Origin: a virus
Lineage: Duplodnaviria; Caudoviricetes
Length of the DNA stretch: 31,598 nucleotides
Virus record (IMG/VR): IMGVR_UViG_3300017774_006457
Span: 1 to 31,598 of that record
Reading direction: 5' to 3' (one strand)
This document shows, piece after piece, positions 5,762-29,197 of this stretch. The first letter of the stretch is position 1. Each line of letters opens with the position of its first letter. The translations under genes and the position numbers were made by a program. The notes below the pieces were generated by a model that was given only the letters and a program-made list of their open reading frames with translations, ran no database searches and was not told the DNA's origin.

Positions 5762-5830
5762 AATAAATTATACTAAATTTATTGATAAAATTCAAAATCT
5801 AATGTAATATAAATATAGTTCATTCTCATT

Positions 5831-6219
5831 GGGCCCGTACTGGTTTCGATTTTAGAGATCGGAATTAAAATGCAAGTGGAGGTTGAATCGAGGACTCCTT
5901 AAAAAGTTTCAATTTATATTAACTGCCAAAACAGCAAAATATAAAGGTCATATTTCAGCAAGAGTTTCTCTTGTCGAGATGACTGAATCTGTAGCCTAAG
6001 TTCTACAGCGTGACTACCTTGACACATCTATTGGATAGTTGCGTAATTAGATGTTTGAGCATAGGAAGTTTTTTTATTCTTTTTATATTCAATATTCAAA
6101 ATAAAATCGCTGAGTATGTTTGTTTTTTATCTATACAAGGCTAAAAACAAAAAGAACTAAACTTGTAGTATTTCAATTTAGATTTTTAAAAGACAGAGGT
6201 TCAATTCCTCTCGGGTCCA
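5831..6219 (+). ncRNA. ssrA: tmRNA
   Basis: 5' GGGCCCG pairs with 3' CGGGTCC-A including G3-U Ala determinant; 5' CTGGTTTCGA; T-arm AGAGG-TTCAATT-CCTCT; tag ORF 5925-5999; CCA not encoded. Confidence 0.93.
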
Positions 6220-6285
6220 AGTAAACGAATCCCTGTGTCTGCATTTTTATTAGATAATACTATAAAATCCACATATAATGCTTAT

Positions 6286-15681: not shown

Positions 15682-17379
15682 TTATTCTACTAAAGTGGGT
15701 AGCACTGTTGTTTCTTCAGTAACTATAATTGACTTATTATTAAAAGTCACATTTTTAAATTTATTTCTAAATTTTTGTTGGAATTTAATAAATTTTTTAA
15801 GATTTTTATTTAAAAATAAAACGTTTGGTAAATTATTCTTTAATATATTTGAAATTTTAGAGTACAAAAGAAATTTAGCGTTTTGTTGTGCTTTTTGTAT
15901 AGCTTTTTCTTTATTAACATCTTCACCTCTGCCTAATACTCCTAGTAAATTTCCTTGATATACTTGAACTTTTAAATCATTTATATTATTAAAAGTTTTG
16001 TTGAAGTTAAAAGCTGAAATAGTTTCATTTATTTTTGAATCTATAGGGTCGTAATTTCCATATCCAGAATAAACTACATATAGCATATGATCTGTACCAG
16101 CAATTTTATTAAATAAAGGATTTATTAATTCTATTGAAAAAGGCGTACCGCTAGGTATAATTCCATTCCATGTCCCTGTATTAAATTTTTTTGAAGCAGA
16201 ATATAATCCACTATACATTTGATAAAAAGCAGTCCCACTAATTGGCGTATTTTGTTTTAAATGTCCGTCAGCATCTATTCTATAGGGGTGATACCAATTT
16301 TTAGGATAAAAAGTTCCAGTATCATTAGTTGTATAACCCGAATAATTATATATGTCAAAAGCTGAAGCGTCTTTTCCAGATTCAAAAAAACGTATACCTG
16401 AAGGAAATGTTGCTTCAATATTTTCAGAGCTAGGGAAAATTGCTTTAACTGCTATCCCACTTGTAATTTTTTCATTTATAGTCTTTGGTGTTTGATAAAT
16501 AAAATTTTTCTGTCTTGTTACGGTATATTGCTTAGACCCATGTACTAAAGTATTACATAGTCCAGTTTCAGCTTTATGAGGAGAAATATAACATATTCTT
16601 TCATTTTGTCCAATTCCAGTTGAAATTAAAATTATACCTTTAAAATCTTGTTCGCCAGTATTAAGATTTTTTGTAAAACATGTTATTTTAGTCGGAACAT
16701 TATAAGCATTAAAATTATTTGTTATAACGGTTGTTGGATAAGTTAAATAAAAATTATTCAATAATGTAGTTGTCGATTCTCCAGGCAATCGATTTTCTTT
16801 CCAATTAACAAAATTTGTATTTGACATTGAATTTTTACCACTAAAAACGTTTGTTAAATTAATTGTTTTAGAAATAGAAATTTGACCAGTTTTATCAAAA
16901 CTAAATCCACTTAATATATTTTGATTTTTTATGCCACTTTCAAAAGAAAATCTAGCGTAAGGAAAAGATTCATTTGTACCTTTAAATTTTAAAATTTCTA
17001 AATTTTTGTTTGAAAAATCTATGAATTGATTAAAATAATTTTCATTGTTAATTAATTTATTATCTACTTTAGACAGATCACAAAAAGATAATTGCCCAAA
17101 AAGAGGAATTCTTTTTTGCACTTGAGCATTAAAGATAACGGAATCTGGTACTAATTTAAAATTTTTAGTTACAGTTAATTCAGTGCTTGTTGTTTCTGCT
17201 GAGATAAGATTAACAACTGCTTTTTTACTTTTAAGAGAGCCTTCAGATACTATATCTAATTTAAACTTTTTAACTTCATTGCTCGTAGATTCTACATTAT
17301 CTACAATAGAATTGCTTGCAGCTATATTTGCAGCTGGCAGACCTAGTAATTGTAAATCTTCTTCGTTTATTAAACTCAT
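15682..17379 (-). CDS. Ribozyme-associated hypothetical protein, paralogue A1
   Basis: 565 aa; shares GQLSF, ICYISPH, YSGLY...FNTGTWNGIIPSG with 21574-23091. Confidence 0.85.
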   Translation of the reverse strand: MSLINEEDLQLLGLPAANIAASNSIVDNVESTSNEVKKFKLDIVSEGSLKSKKAVVNLISAETTSTELTVTKNFKLVPDSVIFNAQVQKRIPLFGQLSFCDLSKVDNKLINNENYFNQFIDFSNKNLEILKFKGTNESFPYARFSFESGIKNQNILSGFSFDKTGQISISKTINLTNVFSGKNSMSNTNFVNWKENRLPGESTTTLLNNFYLTYPTTVITNNFNAYNVPTKITCFTKNLNTGEQDFKGIILISTGIGQNERICYISPHKAETGLCNTLVHGSKQYTVTRQKNFIYQTPKTINEKITSGIAVKAIFPSSENIEATFPSGIRFFESGKDASAFDIYNYSGYTTNDTGTFYPKNWYHPYRIDADGHLKQNTPISGTAFYQMYSGLYSASKKFNTGTWNGIIPSGTPFSIELINPLFNKIAGTDHMLYVVYSGYGNYDPIDSKINETISAFNFNKTFNNINDLKVQVYQGNLLGVLGRGEDVNKEKAIQKAQQNAKFLLYSKISNILKNNLPNVLFLNKNLKKFIKFQQKFRNKFKNVTFNNKSIIVTEETTVLPTLVE

Positions 17380-17448: not shown

Positions 17449-17700
17449 CATTTTGTTATCGTTAAATTGTTTATATTTAACATCTTTATATTTCTATAAA
17501 GTTCAGACTATATCTTCTTTTATTTCTAAAAGTTTGGGCGCTCTTGGACAATTTTATTGTTGGTACTCAATCGTCTAGTCGTTACACCTTACAGCCTATC
17601 TTTCCCAGCTGTCTTGGCTCGGTATTGTCTTCCATTTTTTAATGGTTAAGATTTCCACCGAATTCACCCAATAACGGTCATTTAAATTTTAAAAAGAACT
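17449..17700 (-). ncRNA. Group I intron ribozyme core (IA-like) lacking an upstream exon, copy 1
   Basis: P3 UUGGGUG/CGCCCAA, P4 UUCGGU/ACCGAG, AAGGUGUAACGACUA, GAAGAUAUAGUC (P7 GACUA/UAGUC), GNRA-capped P8 and P9, ends AACAAAAUG. Confidence 0.9.
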
Positions 17701-17708
17701 AATCTTTA

Positions 17709-17734
17709 TTACACTTAATTTTTTTTATGTGTAA
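17709..17734. promoter_or_regulatory. Back-to-back GTGTAA promoter motifs
   Basis: TTACAC 17709-17714 (minus, ribozyme) and GTGTAA 17729-17734 (plus, 8 nt before ATG). Confidence 0.65.
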
Positions 17735-24027: not shown

Positions 24028-25092
24028 TTAAAGTTTCAAATCACCAAAATCTTCATCTTCTATATCTGTTTTTCTTGCGCCAACTTTATAGCTAGAAATC
24101 TCAGTTTCTTGAGGAGCAACTTGTACTTTACTGCTATCTAGATAACTATCATGCCATCCACCAATAGGATTATCTTTTTGGTTGAATATCTTCTTATAAC
24201 CCAAGCTTCTTAGCCTACTATCACAAAGCCACTTAGAGTAGCCATCTAGAACCTCCGCATTTAATCCAAGTAAACTACCATTACTAAACAGATATTGCGA
24301 CCATTCACTTTCATTCTTGGCAGCTTGTTCGTAGAAAGCATAGATTTTGTCTTCACTTTTCTTGACTATACTTGTGAAACCTTCTTTATCTTCATCTCTT
24401 AATATTTTAAGTAGATTTTGACTTACAGCAAAATGCAATGCTTCGTCGCGTTGAATGAATTTTATAATTTTAGAATTGCCTTCCATCTTGCCACGATATC
24501 CAAAATAAAAAGAACAAGCAAAAGAAACATAAAATACAAGTCCTTCCATTACATTAATAGAAAGAATGGCATCAAAAATCTTTTGTTTAGGATCTTTCTT
24601 TTCATCATCACCAAGAATTTTATCAAAGTTATTTCTAATTAACTCAGCGCGACTTGTAATCTCTTTATCTTCCATGATGCTATCAAAAAATTTAGTAGCA
24701 TCTGGATATACATTATTTAATAGATAAGAATATGAATAACTATGAATACCTTCAAATTGTGCCCAAGTATTCATGCAAATCTCAAGTTCTGGATTAGTAA
24801 CGTAATCTTTGAGCGAATGAATACTTCTAGAAAGCATACTATCTCCAAGAGTTTGAAATCTTAAATTACTATCAAATACAAATCTTTCTGTATCAGTTAA
24901 GTTTTTGTAATCGCTTCTATCTTTTCCTAAAGCAATTTCATGAGGCCACCAAAAGTTTTCGTTTTGCTTTTTGAATAATTCAAAGAATATTGGATATTTA
25001 AACCTATCATATCTTTGTAAATTTAAATCTTCTCCAAGAAATAATGGTTGTTTAGTAAAATCGATATTTTTAAAATTTAAAACAGTTTTCAT
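24028..25092 (-). CDS. nrdB: Ribonucleotide reductase class Ia beta subunit
   Basis: FWWPHE, QTLGDS, EGIHSYSY (radical Tyr), MEGLVFY, RDEALH, VAPQETEISSY. Confidence 0.96.
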   Translation of the reverse strand: MKTVLNFKNIDFTKQPLFLGEDLNLQRYDRFKYPIFFELFKKQNENFWWPHEIALGKDRSDYKNLTDTERFVFDSNLRFQTLGDSMLSRSIHSLKDYVTNPELEICMNTWAQFEGIHSYSYSYLLNNVYPDATKFFDSIMEDKEITSRAELIRNNFDKILGDDEKKDPKQKIFDAILSINVMEGLVFYVSFACSFYFGYRGKMEGNSKIIKFIQRDEALHFAVSQNLLKILRDEDKEGFTSIVKKSEDKIYAFYEQAAKNESEWSQYLFSNGSLLGLNAEVLDGYSKWLCDSRLRSLGYKKIFNQKDNPIGGWHDSYLDSSKVQVAPQETEISSYKVGARKTDIEDEDFGDLKL

Positions 25093-25714
25093 TTTTTTCT
25101 ATGTAATATTTAGTGCCATATACTTGCAAATATTTATTATTAATACGACAAAAATCATTAGCAGCTTTTGCTACTCCTGACCAATTCAAATCATCTCCTA
25201 GAATAATTCCATTTGGATTTAATAATTGATAATAATAATTCAAATCAGAAAAAACCTCTTTCTCTGTATGAGCTCCATCAATATAAATTAAATCTGCTTT
25301 TATATTAAATTGATTAAATATTTCATATGAATTTGCAGAAGTGTTTGGTATAGGTATAATTATATCTTGGCAATTATTATGTATGACATTACTTAAGAAT
25401 TGATAATATAATTGAGGATATCCATGTCTTAAATTTAAATGAGTAGTCCAATCTTTAAAATGTTCTGAAGAGCCTAAAAATGTATCTACGCATAAAATTT
25501 TAGTATTTAATTTTAATCTTTTACAAATATTAGACATATGGATAGCAGACGCGCCTTTCCATGTACCAATTTCAATGATAATTGATGGTTTAATTAGTTC
25601 TATTAATGTATTAAATATTGGATTTTGAGAATCCCATCCTTGAAGATCATTATCGTACTCTGGAACATAATTATATATGTTTTTTGTATTAAAAATATTT
25701 TCAAGAATATCCAT
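25070..25714 (-). CDS. Class I SAM-dependent methyltransferase (Methyltransf_24-like)
   Basis: IEIGTWKGAS, CVDTF, YIDGAH, GDD; ATG 25714 follows the nrdA stop. Confidence 0.88.
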   Translation of the reverse strand: MDILENIFNTKNIYNYVPEYDNDLQGWDSQNPIFNTLIELIKPSIIIEIGTWKGASAIHMSNICKRLKLNTKILCVDTFLGSSEHFKDWTTHLNLRHGYPQLYYQFLSNVIHNNCQDIIIPIPNTSANSYEIFNQFNIKADLIYIDGAHTEKEVFSDLNYYYQLLNPNGIILGDDLNWSGVAKAANDFCRINNKYLQVYGTKYYIEKNENCFKF

Positions 25715-25718
25715 AAAA

Positions 25719-27968
25719 TTACAATTTACATGCTCCACTAGCGCAGTCATCTTCTTTTTGTGTCATAGACTGCTCTTTATCTCCATCGTCTGTATTATTA
25801 TAATATAAACTAATTAGTCCAAGACTATAAGCATACATTATTTCTTTCATAACTTTGCTATCTGGTAATATGTGGTTATCATAATGACTATAATTATAAT
25901 ACACATTAGTAGAAATAGCCATATCAATATATTTTTGAATTACTGCATTTATTTTTAATAAGCCTAAATTGTCTTTAAAATCAAAAGCTAATTCATAATT
26001 ATGATCATATTTTCCAATTCCTGGGACCATAACTGGGAGTTTGCCCATTTTGCTTGTTTTATAAGTTATAAGGCTACGAATTGGTTCAACGCCATTTGTG
26101 GATGATTGAATCACAGAGCTACTCTCGCAAGGCATACAAGAAGACAATGTAGAATGTCTTAATCCAAATTCTTTAATATCTTTTCTTAACTTTTCCCAAT
26201 CAAGTGATAGTTTTCTTTTAAATAGTTCATCTACTTTATCTTTGTATGTATCAATAGGTAATATACCTTTAGAATATTTAGTTCTATCAAATTTTTCGCA
26301 CTTGCCTTTTTCTTTGGCTAATTCAATGCTACTCTTTAATAAATAATATTGAAAATGTTCCATCCATTCATCAACTACTGATAATGACTTATCTGAACTA
26401 TATTTCAATTCATTTTTAGCAAGAAAAGCTGCAAGATTGGTAATTCCAACTCCAAGGCTTCTGCGTTTTTTAGCAAAATTTTCAGCAGCAACATTAAAGT
26501 AATCTTGAAGCTCAATGATTTCATCAAGAAATCTTACGATAAGATCGCAGGTCTTTTCAAGATCTTGCCAGTTTTTAATTTCTAGCATATTTACTGCCGA
26601 AAGAATGCACATACCAATCTCCGCTTCTTTATCATTATAATCATTTAATGGAATTGTTGGATGAATAACTTCTGTACAAAGATTACTCATAGTAACCTTG
26701 TCTAACCAAGCTCCATGATTATTTGCATGATCAACATTTAAAATATAAATTCGACCAGTTTCAACTCTCTCTTTAATTATTAGAGAAAATAATTTACGAG
26801 CAGATATTTTCTTCTTAATTTTTAATTTCTTAGATTCACATTCTTTATATACTTTATCAAATTCTTTAGTTCCCCATGCTTCAAAAAGTTCTGGAACTTC
26901 TGAATTATTAAATAAAGTAATGTCTTCATCTTTTAAAACTCTATCGTAGAACAACTTACTCATTCCAACTGTATAATCAAGTTTACGAACTCTATTATCG
27001 TCTGTTCCAGCATTATTTTTTAATACCACAACGTCTTCAATTTCATAATGCCACCATTGAATATTACAAGTTGCACTTCCACCTCTTAATCCATTTTGTT
27101 GCCATGCTTTTACGCTACTCTCGTAGATTTTTAAGAATGGAATTAATCCAGTATGAACTACTTCTCCATTTTTAATAGGAGAACCAATAGCTCTAATCTT
27201 GCTTATATCAATACCTATACCACATCTATTAGCAGTAGCCATACTAACAGCAGTAGCACTAGCAGTAATACTTTCTCTAGTATCATCAACGCCAATCAAA
27301 CAGCAGCTAGCGTAATTTCTGCTAGATGTTCTGACTCCTGCCATTACTGGAGTTGGAAGATTAATCTTATGCTTACTAATAGCATCATAAAATTTTCTTA
27401 CATAATTAAGTCTTGTTTCTGCTGGATATTTTGCAAATGCATAAGCTGCAATAAGTATATAAGCAAATTGTGGAGTTTCATAAATTTTTCCAGTTGTTCT
27501 ATTTTTGATTAAATATTTATCACAAAGTTGTTTGATTCCAGCATAAGTAAAAATATAATCTCTTTCATGATCAATAAACTCACCAATCTTATTAATCTCA
27601 TCTTCAGAATAGTAACTCAAAATACTATCATCGTAAATCTTATTTTTAATACTCTCTTTTAAAAACTCTAAAAGTCTTGGAGCATGTTTTCCTTTCCAAA
27701 CATCTTTTCTTAATTGATAATTTAAAAGTCTACCAGCAACGAATTGATAGTTTGGTTTTTCAATAGAAATTAAATTCGCAGCACTCTCAATCAATAAGTT
27801 GTGTATTTCTTTTGTGCTTACGCCATCTGTAATATTTATCTTAGCATTAATTTCAATATCTGTGAGGCTTACTCCAGAATATCCTTCTATTGCCCAGTTT
27901 ATTACTTTATTAATTTTATCTATGTTAAATTTTTCAGTAGCGTTATTTCTTTTCTTTACATTAATCAT
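25719..27968 (-). CDS. nrdA: Ribonucleotide reductase class Ia alpha subunit with ATP cone
   Basis: VKKRN ATP cone, ASCCL, SNLCTE, MCILS, SLYY, C-terminal CASGAC. Confidence 0.97.
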   Translation of the reverse strand: MINVKKRNNATEKFNIDKINKVINWAIEGYSGVSLTDIEINAKINITDGVSTKEIHNLLIESAANLISIEKPNYQFVAGRLLNYQLRKDVWKGKHAPRLLEFLKESIKNKIYDDSILSYYSEDEINKIGEFIDHERDYIFTYAGIKQLCDKYLIKNRTTGKIYETPQFAYILIAAYAFAKYPAETRLNYVRKFYDAISKHKINLPTPVMAGVRTSSRNYASCCLIGVDDTRESITASATAVSMATANRCGIGIDISKIRAIGSPIKNGEVVHTGLIPFLKIYESSVKAWQQNGLRGGSATCNIQWWHYEIEDVVVLKNNAGTDDNRVRKLDYTVGMSKLFYDRVLKDEDITLFNNSEVPELFEAWGTKEFDKVYKECESKKLKIKKKISARKLFSLIIKERVETGRIYILNVDHANNHGAWLDKVTMSNLCTEVIHPTIPLNDYNDKEAEIGMCILSAVNMLEIKNWQDLEKTCDLIVRFLDEIIELQDYFNVAAENFAKKRRSLGVGITNLAAFLAKNELKYSSDKSLSVVDEWMEHFQYYLLKSSIELAKEKGKCEKFDRTKYSKGILPIDTYKDKVDELFKRKLSLDWEKLRKDIKEFGLRHSTLSSCMPCESSSVIQSSTNGVEPIRSLITYKTSKMGKLPVMVPGIGKYDHNYELAFDFKDNLGLLKINAVIQKYIDMAISTNVYYNYSHYDNHILPDSKVMKEIMYAYSLGLISLYYNNTDDGDKEQSMTQKEDDCASGACKL

Positions 27969-28059
27969 TTCAAAAACTTTCTATTGTAGATGTAAGTAAT
28001 GTTACAGTATTTTTGTATTTTAAAAAAGAAAATAATTAAATCTTATTAACATTTCTGAC

Positions 28060-28389
28060 TTATGTAGATAAAGAGTGTACTAATCTAACTTCTGGAATTA
28101 ACTTCCCAATGAGTTCTTCAAAGCGGAGCTTTCCCTGTATTTTCATACAAAGTTGAAAAAGCCTATTAGTTCTACTTCCCAATTGAGTCTGTAAGCCTTT
28201 CGGCCCCTAACACTTATCGGATGTCGGTAGGATCATCCATCGCGTGTTAGCCCTTACACCTACACTCCCACTATTACTAGTGGTTATCTGGGTCGCAAGC
28301 TCCTATAGCGTTGCCCACGTTTCGAACTAATAAGACTTATCGTTTTTTTTGGAGTACGACAAACCTTATCCGCTAATTGGGCGGTATGT
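28060..28389 (-). ncRNA. Unidentified large structured RNA
   Basis: GC-enriched ORF-free island with its own promoter, three GNRA hairpins, nested long-range helices; 3' end approximate. Confidence 0.7.
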
Positions 28390-28395
28390 TTATAT

Positions 28396-28424
28396 ATAGT
28401 ATAATGTATATTTATGTTTGTCAA
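28396..28424 (-). promoter_or_regulatory. Sigma70-type promoter for the structured RNA
   Basis: TTGACA-17-TACTAT. Confidence 0.7.
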
Positions 28425-28453
28425 ATAAATTTATTTAAAATATAATACTTATA

Positions 28454-29197
28454 ATGAAAAAAGTTTCTTATTGTACTGTATGCTATGGTAGATTATGGCA
28501 ATTAGCCTTCACTTTAAAAGATAATTTAGAAAACCTCAAAGATGACGAAGAGCTAGTACTAGTTGATTATAATAGTCCAGATGATACTATGCTTTTCGTT
28601 TTAGGAACAAAATTTTTTGAAAAATATATTCAAGAAAATAAATTAAAATTTATTAAAATTCTAAATATTGAAGAATACAATTGCCCTAAATCTAAAAACA
28701 TATCTCACAGATTAGCTTCTGGTGGAATTTTAGTAAATTTAGACGTTGATAATTATTTATTAGGCATGAGAGATAAAATTGATAAGACTTTTAATAAAAA
28801 CGATACAAGCATACTACATATGTTTAATGAATCGAAAGGGGGGACTTTTGGTAGAATAGCTTTAACAAAAAATATGTTTTATAAATTAGGAGGTTATGAT
28901 GAACAACTCTTACAACATGCCCACCAAGATTCAGATTTAATCGAAAGAGGGAAAGGCATTGGTCTAGAATACGTATTAGATCCTTTAGATACAACTGTGA
29001 TACCGAATAATATTTATGTTAAAAATAGATATTTAAATCAAAACTGGTTTGATATGAAACAAAAAAATATTCAAATTAGTGAAAAAAACTTAATAAATAA
29101 AGAATTTGTTGCAAATAAAAAATATGGTTGGGGAAATTGCAGTTTCATTGAGAATTACGATAAAAAAATAAATAATTATTCATCTATATTTCCATAA
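28454..29197 (+). CDS. Glycosyltransferase family 2/7C-like
   Basis: LVDYNSPD, NLDVD, GGYDE...QDSDL. Confidence 0.85.
   Translation: MKKVSYCTVCYGRLWQLAFTLKDNLENLKDDEELVLVDYNSPDDTMLFVLGTKFFEKYIQENKLKFIKILNIEEYNCPKSKNISHRLASGGILVNLDVDNYLLGMRDKIDKTFNKNDTSILHMFNESKGGTFGRIALTKNMFYKLGGYDEQLLQHAHQDSDLIERGKGIGLEYVLDPLDTTVIPNNIYVKNRYLNQNWFDMKQKNIQISEKNLINKEFVANKKYGWGNCSFIENYDKKINNYSSIFP

Follow-up and report, generated by a model that had tools for sequence, protein, structure and literature searches.

We identified a predicted non-coding RNA gene in large freshwater (lake) phages whose transcript carries two short boxes that are identical within each copy of the RNA and change together between copies. 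This twin-box RNA represents a new family among the ornate RNAs of phages, one in which the boxes are an unusual feature. It is encoded in the window, a 31.6-kb phage fragment (14% complete) that also contains nrdAB, purA, IMPDH, a sigma factor and glycosyltransferase genes. Box 1 equaled box 2 in 108 of 108 unique full-length copies, which together display 10 box variants. We consider it probable, given this covariation of identity, that one complementary strand pairs with both boxes. The reading that we favor, with a probability of roughly 0.28, is that box 1 would re-pair with the phage's own template DNA at box 2, the outcome being replication initiation.

The first-pass annotation had proposed a structured RNA of about 330 nt with a promoter of its own. 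The element itself stood, and its length was revised to about 289 nt (Table 1) because conservation ends after box 2 at about position 28101. The promoter, TTGACA-17-TACTAT, is present at 28424-28396, and TTGAC lies 34-47 nt upstream of the RNA in 102 of the 108 homologues; promoter-like sites alone show no excess here (23 versus 20.3 by chance). We infer that the gene is transcribed from this sigma70 promoter. Homologues were collected from 80 nrdA loci (80 kept of 203) and through pattern scans, in which the patterns left the box core and box 2 unfixed. An RNA homologue was present in 227 of the 354 collected loci, and the unique full-length RNAs, 282-335 nt long, all belong to one phage clade; a divergent copy was included by hand in this set, and 15 truncated ones were left out. 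The homologous RNAs begin at ACAUA and have 39% G+C, versus 16-20% in their flanks. Each contig searched carried a single copy (18 of 18; 13/13 and 5/5), and in several phages the RNA stands back to back with tmRNA. A looser pattern returned 120 loci, 97 of which contained no homologue and were rejected. Model matches scoring 17-29 bits in a bacterial genome and in a phage clade farther away were likewise rejected, since they fell in coding sequence, one of them in mutS. Five records (fragments) of the more distant clade gave only weak matches in coding regions.

Table 1 Predicted features of the twin-box RNA gene and its surroundings in the window.
Feature	Position	Strand	Remark
Promoter, sigma70-type, -35 TTGACA / 17 nt / -10 TACTAT	28396..28424	-	conserved in homologues; predicted
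Predicted ncRNA gene, ~289 nt, conserved ACAUA start to box 2 end	28101..28389	-	ends predicted from conservation
P1, variable 5' hairpin	28370..28384	-	61.7% paired
P2 hairpin, A-rich loop	28338..28361	-	88.6% paired; double changes in 5/6 pairs
P3, long-range helix closing the core domain, 28332-28324 with 28172-28164	28164..28332	-	77.4% paired; double changes in 7/9 pairs
P4 stem, CAA/A internal loop; loop 28303-28298 is the pseudoknot 2 5' strand	28289..28317	-	98-100% paired
P5 hairpin	28268..28283	-	85.0% paired; double changes in 5/6 pairs
Pseudoknot 1, GUAGG (28263-28259) with CCUAC (28231-28227) in the P8 loop	28227..28263	-	95.0% paired
P7-P8, extended stem bearing the pseudoknot 1 loop	28207..28250	-	79.4% and 94.4% paired
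P9, GAAA hairpin (GCC-GAAA-GGC), longer in other subfamilies	28195..28204	-	alignment inspection only
Box 1 (UCA, one extra A, 9-nt core), junction before P3 3' strand	28174..28186	-	comparison of copies
P10 hairpin	28133..28152	-	77.1% paired on 4 base pairs
Pseudoknot 2 3' strand (AGCUCC), near the 3' end	28125..28130	-	97.6% paired
Box 2 (UCA and the same 9-nt core), last conserved element	28101..28112	-	comparison of copies
Conserved nrdA upstream block (TACAC ... TGTTAATAA ... TGTAA), outside the RNA	28001..28080	-	own element of nrdA
nrdA, ribonucleotide reductase large subunit	25719..27968	-	neighbor of the RNA, no component

The proposal that this is a novel large phage ncRNA was supported: the RNA is conserved and covarying, has its own conserved promoter and lacks an Rfam match. 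Rfam 15 returned no match to E=10 on positions 27950-28500 and none to E=5 over the RNA in 20 homologous loci, where the adjacent tmRNA was detected, and no known ribozyme model matched the RNA. The models of ROOL (RF03087) and GOLLD (RF02032) did not match either; in one of these searches the ROOL control also gave no match. BLAST comparison of two RNA subfamilies with GenBank phages, and of one with plasmids, produced one 25-nt chance match only. As annotated, the RNA has no group I intron signature: RF00028 did not match it, though a group I intron was detected at another site of the window, and the RNA is intergenic with its own promoter rather than interrupting a host gene. That intron match (17484-17720, minus strand, 52.6 bits) lies between annotated ORFs, with a 565-aa ORF at 15682-17379 directly downstream. 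Judged from listings, no description of the twin-box RNA was found in the literature. PMC10690425, of which a part was accessible, mined IMG/VR for RNAs of 29-151 nt, and fragments of the twin-box RNA may be among its candidates; four of its six text supplements held no match to the box motifs. The accessible part of the Minerva preprint (10.64898/2026.09.22.753630) deals with other systems.

The description of the region as highly structured was supported by its folding energy, which was below that of shuffled sequences (z -2.63), by the homologues folded individually (mean z -2.86; 27 of 30 below -2) and by covariation. On an alignment of 36 representative sequences, 86.4% of the cells of a 59-pair model were paired, versus 70.1% when shuffled and 36-45% when slid, and 42 of the 59 pairs had changes on both sides; these counts lean toward the model, because the window sequence served to draw it and the aligned sequences are related to one another. 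RNAalifold returned two long-range pairings in which double changes were numerous. Among the helices read previously, covariation supported the long-range UAUUAGUUC/GAACUAAUA helix together with CCACUA/UAGUGG, CUAACAC/GUGUUAG and GGAUG/CAUCC. The 5' hairpin also exists, although its alignment is poor. Two further pairings had to be abandoned, namely the UGUAAG/CUUACA helix (P6), paired in 64.7% versus 64.2% when shuffled, and a pseudoknot between the 5' loop and a distant AAUUGG, paired in 67.5% versus 63.9%, with its middle pairs mostly broken. The first reading had lacked the P4 stem, the twin boxes and two pseudoknots, GUAGG/CCUAC and GGAGCU/AGCUCC, the latter with double changes in 6 of 7 pairs. 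The transcript is predicted to be a doubly knotted RNA.

The twin boxes share UYA and a 9-nt core, differ by the extra A in box 1 and lie 69-79 nt apart (about 75). They were compared with up to 3 mismatches allowed. On a tree built with the boxes masked, at least ten concerted changes were counted, a C/U change having arisen twice, and close relatives whose RNAs are 15-21 differences apart differ in both boxes; 63 copies carry one and the same box. The cores are purine-rich (5-9 of 9 letters). By computation, both boxes were more often unpaired (0.70 for box 1 and 0.61 for box 2) than the RNA overall (0.42), and the predicted fold would keep box 1 single-stranded. A single strand pairing with both boxes is proposed because covariation of like with like would then be expected, as for A and A' of DRT10.

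Searches for a partner within the RNA and in phage contigs returned no candidate other than the template. No conserved internal complement of the boxes occurs inside the RNA, and 8-mer and 12-mer searches of 11-13 contigs revealed no third co-varying genomic site. Other box-like sites in the phage genomes were rejected as coding look-alikes without co-variation. The junction of the pre-tmRNA leader with the mature tmRNA (window 5822-5833, plus strand), which shares 9 letters with box 2, was also rejected, as it did not co-vary in relatives. Because the template DNA is the sole complementary strand certain to exist, and no other partner was found in the phage sequences, we propose it as the partner. 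This single-copy, non-coding phage gene would give a sigma70-driven transcript of two-pseudoknot fold, which would present box 1 unpaired, and box 1 could capture the template DNA at box 2. A lasting RNA-DNA hybrid would result, which might act as a replication primer or give the phage helicase an opened duplex. The boxes would drift in pairs, only their mutual match being required. Template-DNA pairing would account for there being a single copy, for the drift in pairs and for conservation that stops at box 2.

In ColE1, two stretches likewise form a spaced direct repeat. According to the accessible parts of PMC4412123 and PMC5043065, the persistent hybrid from which ColE1 replication is primed forms between an rG stretch in RNA II and a dC stretch in the template. 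The twin-box RNA corresponds to such a primer, at the sequence level only, in having a purine stretch that matches a downstream template stretch. For hybrids of box RNA, computed energies ran from -8.0 to -12.5 kcal/mol, similar to the DNA duplex and 1.3-6.5 kcal/mol better than for the reverse strand. Against the template model, a hybrid of 10-12 bp barely matches the DNA duplex in stability, and G runs are absent from the commonest box. Host RNase H would be required, since none was found in 5 of 5 phage contigs. No replication-origin skew signal separable from the coding strand was found at the RNA, either in nrdA loci or in nine long contigs. Four-fold-site skew of nrdA in 27 co-oriented versus 23 opposed loci did not differ for GC4 (p=0.32) and for TA4 differed in the wrong direction for an origin model (p=0.048). 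The global GC-skew minimum lay within 1 kb of the RNA in three of the nine long contigs and 5-9 kb off in three; in three the minimum near the RNA was only local, and the skew follows the coding strand. The conserved orientation of the RNA does not discriminate, because tmRNA shares it.

The template model also leaves unexplained a codon-like pattern of the box changes. Reverse-complement boxes read x-F-P-M, x-F-P-V or x-F-S-L, and in that frame 10 of 16 single box changes would be synonymous (p=0.046 by column shuffle across six frames), in a test that was post hoc and marginal. This pattern would suit an RNA acting in trans whose identical boxes serve as antisense guides to a host RNA (probably an mRNA) and follow that target when it differs, a reading that we regard as possible though doubtful and as only slightly less likely than the template model. 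The computed accessibility of the boxes and the movement of the RNA gene as a cassette, often beside tmRNA, are in keeping with such guides. However, no phage gene was found as a target, one box is common to 63 copies, and G-U wobble should permit drift between the two guides, yet they differ in none of the 108 copies. If the partner is host RNA, the transcript would be a phage twin-guide RNA. We only tentatively suggest a wider class, a programmable guide RNA in which a double-pseudoknot scaffold or ribozyme bears two identical 10-12 nt guides that pair in turn with one strand (own DNA or host mRNA), with at least ten matched reprogrammings in nature and no known protein partner.

The letters invariant in both boxes (GA, U, A, G, AA) rank with the best conserved positions of the RNA, as might be expected of a decoy or scaffold for a dimeric sequence-specific protein, whether of the phage or of the host (for example a defense nuclease), with one subunit per box; by inspection, the GA..UY flanks could also pair and place the two tails in pseudo-symmetry. 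Such a protein would nevertheless tolerate differing letters at the degenerate positions, none of which differ in 108 copies, and no phage protein tracked the two main RNA subfamilies among 42 testable ortholog groups; we judge this explanation unlikely. An outside partner would be unnecessary if the boxes touched each other through symmetric like-with-like pairs, as a parallel duplex or multimer in an assembly of the ROOL, GOLLD or OLE style, which appears distinctly unlikely. The extra A in box 1 counts against such contact, as does the lack of similarity to ROOL or GOLLD, and we know of no precedent for a 10-12 nt parallel duplex of mixed sequence. In its favor, the accessible part of PMC12286853 describes a symmetric helix of four A-A pairs in OLE, and ROOL and GOLLD as phage RNAs that build RNA-only cages.

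Identity covariation of two distant boxes marks re-annealing in telomerase, DRT10 and comparable systems, and the A-B-A' identity pattern of DRT10 and DRT2 is present here; a cognate reverse transcriptase (RT) alongside is not. The accessible part of PMC12632851 reports that A and A' of DRT10 must be identical and that matched double changes rescue, so the boxes could form a realignment template on which an RT makes tandem repeats, or an RT decoy. We consider this very unlikely. No RVT_1 domain was found in two of two long contigs, one rated 100% complete, and no RT profile matched among 145 of 199 ORFs (Pfam) or 67 ORFs (PHROGs). The B segment, of about 57-67 nt, is structured and no multiple of three, whereas DRT10 fails at 20 nt. 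Viral contigs, which drop rare molecules, showed no back-jump junction, and four DNA runs no box-to-box joint. Explanations beyond those weighed here, a ribozyme included, together receive little probability.

The first-pass annotation had also suggested a leader regulating ribonucleotide reductase. Among the 80 nrdA loci, the RNA lies directly upstream of nrdA in 25, the window included, and about 1.2 kb upstream in one; it lies downstream of nrdAB on the opposite strand in 25 and is absent within 3 kb in 29, in six of which whole records place it about 7-14 kb from nrdA. The same-strand position 5' of nrdA is thus not fixed, with 26 of 51 nearby copies upstream and 25 downstream opposite. 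Moreover, nrdA has an upstream block of its own, its TACAC block being present in 73 of 73 in-clade loci, whether they carry the RNA or not. Because of the downstream opposite copies and this block, the reading as an nrdA leader is not supported, and a cis-regulatory leader or antiterminator for nrdAB is hardly credible. One RNA-library contig of a relative does run from the 3' half of the RNA into nrdA, but the library may contain DNA, from which the contig could stem; only small shares or fragments of the four RNA runs used were present as contigs, too little for a discrete transcript to show. The minus strand also lacks a terminator. In the nrdA block, the middle 9-mer is found in either orientation and has the sequence TTATTCACA in some relatives. 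We take it to resemble a DnaA box, and the block could serve DnaA control of nrdAB or be an origin element. Between nrdA and nrdB lies a methyltransferase gene (window 25070-25750, minus strand), a slot that in relatives holds other genes or none. The closest named carriers of nrdA are only about 53% identical to the window nrdA.

A 172-kb relative, rated 100% complete, encodes Pol III alpha, DnaB, DnaG, RecA and terminase, and no replication initiator was named among 145 of its 199 ORFs scanned with Pfam. If own DNA is the partner, the twin-box RNA would be a candidate for an RNA that starts replication in large phages whose replisome is of bacterial type and for which no initiator has been named. 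The host of these phages is probably a member of the Verrucomicrobiota, a lead rather than an assignment, because the top look-alike clusters of two host-like proteins of the 172-kb relative were mostly from that phylum. A prepilin-type N-methyl protein, a PATR-repeat protein and a FecR protein encoded in a relative (L405:203-3342, L404:18802-19698) also resemble Verrucomicrobiota proteins. The window carries a tmRNA with the long tag AKTAKYKGHISARVSLVEMTESVA (5831-6220, plus strand); tags were near-identical in 9 of 10 tmRNAs of related contigs, and one was divergent. A tRNA-Ser with the rare ACT anticodon occurs in 6 of 13 related contigs (e.g. G005:28171-28260, G001:68910-68996).

The twin-box RNA is small, has a covariation-backed fold and is represented by 108 natural variants. 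RNase P RNA, which it resembles in size, is recognized by a P4 helix with a bulged U that joins CR-I to the 3' CR-V. The G(G)AAAG before the pseudoknot helix presumably resembles the CR-I motif; unlike in RNase P RNA, however, the helix is continuous without a bulged U, and the partner strand is on the 5' side, within the loop of a hairpin. Together with the lack of an Rfam match, this agrees with the earlier reading of no RNase P signature.

As in the template RNAs of DRT10 and telomerase, two short copies vary between systems and are identical within one (PMC12632851, accessible part), but the twin-box repeats are 10-12 nt rather than 2-4, the spacer is far longer and structured, and neither an RT nor a repeat product was found in these phages. 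ROOL, GOLLD and OLE are likewise large, covarying, pseudoknotted phage ncRNAs near tmRNA or tRNA genes according to the accessible part of PMC12286853, in which twin identical boxes are not described for them; the twin-box RNA is under half their length. Compared with ColE1, it lacks plasmid similarity, is 290 nt long with two pseudoknots, has 12-nt twin boxes of mixed sequence in place of a G run, and displays neither an antisense RNA I nor a skew signal. It nevertheless shares with ColE1 RNA II a purine stretch that would pair with the template strand (PMC4412123, PMC5043065, accessible parts), and with both RNA II and the T4 origin transcripts, which act as R-loop primers, the predicted character of a folded, non-coding RNA under a host-type promoter.
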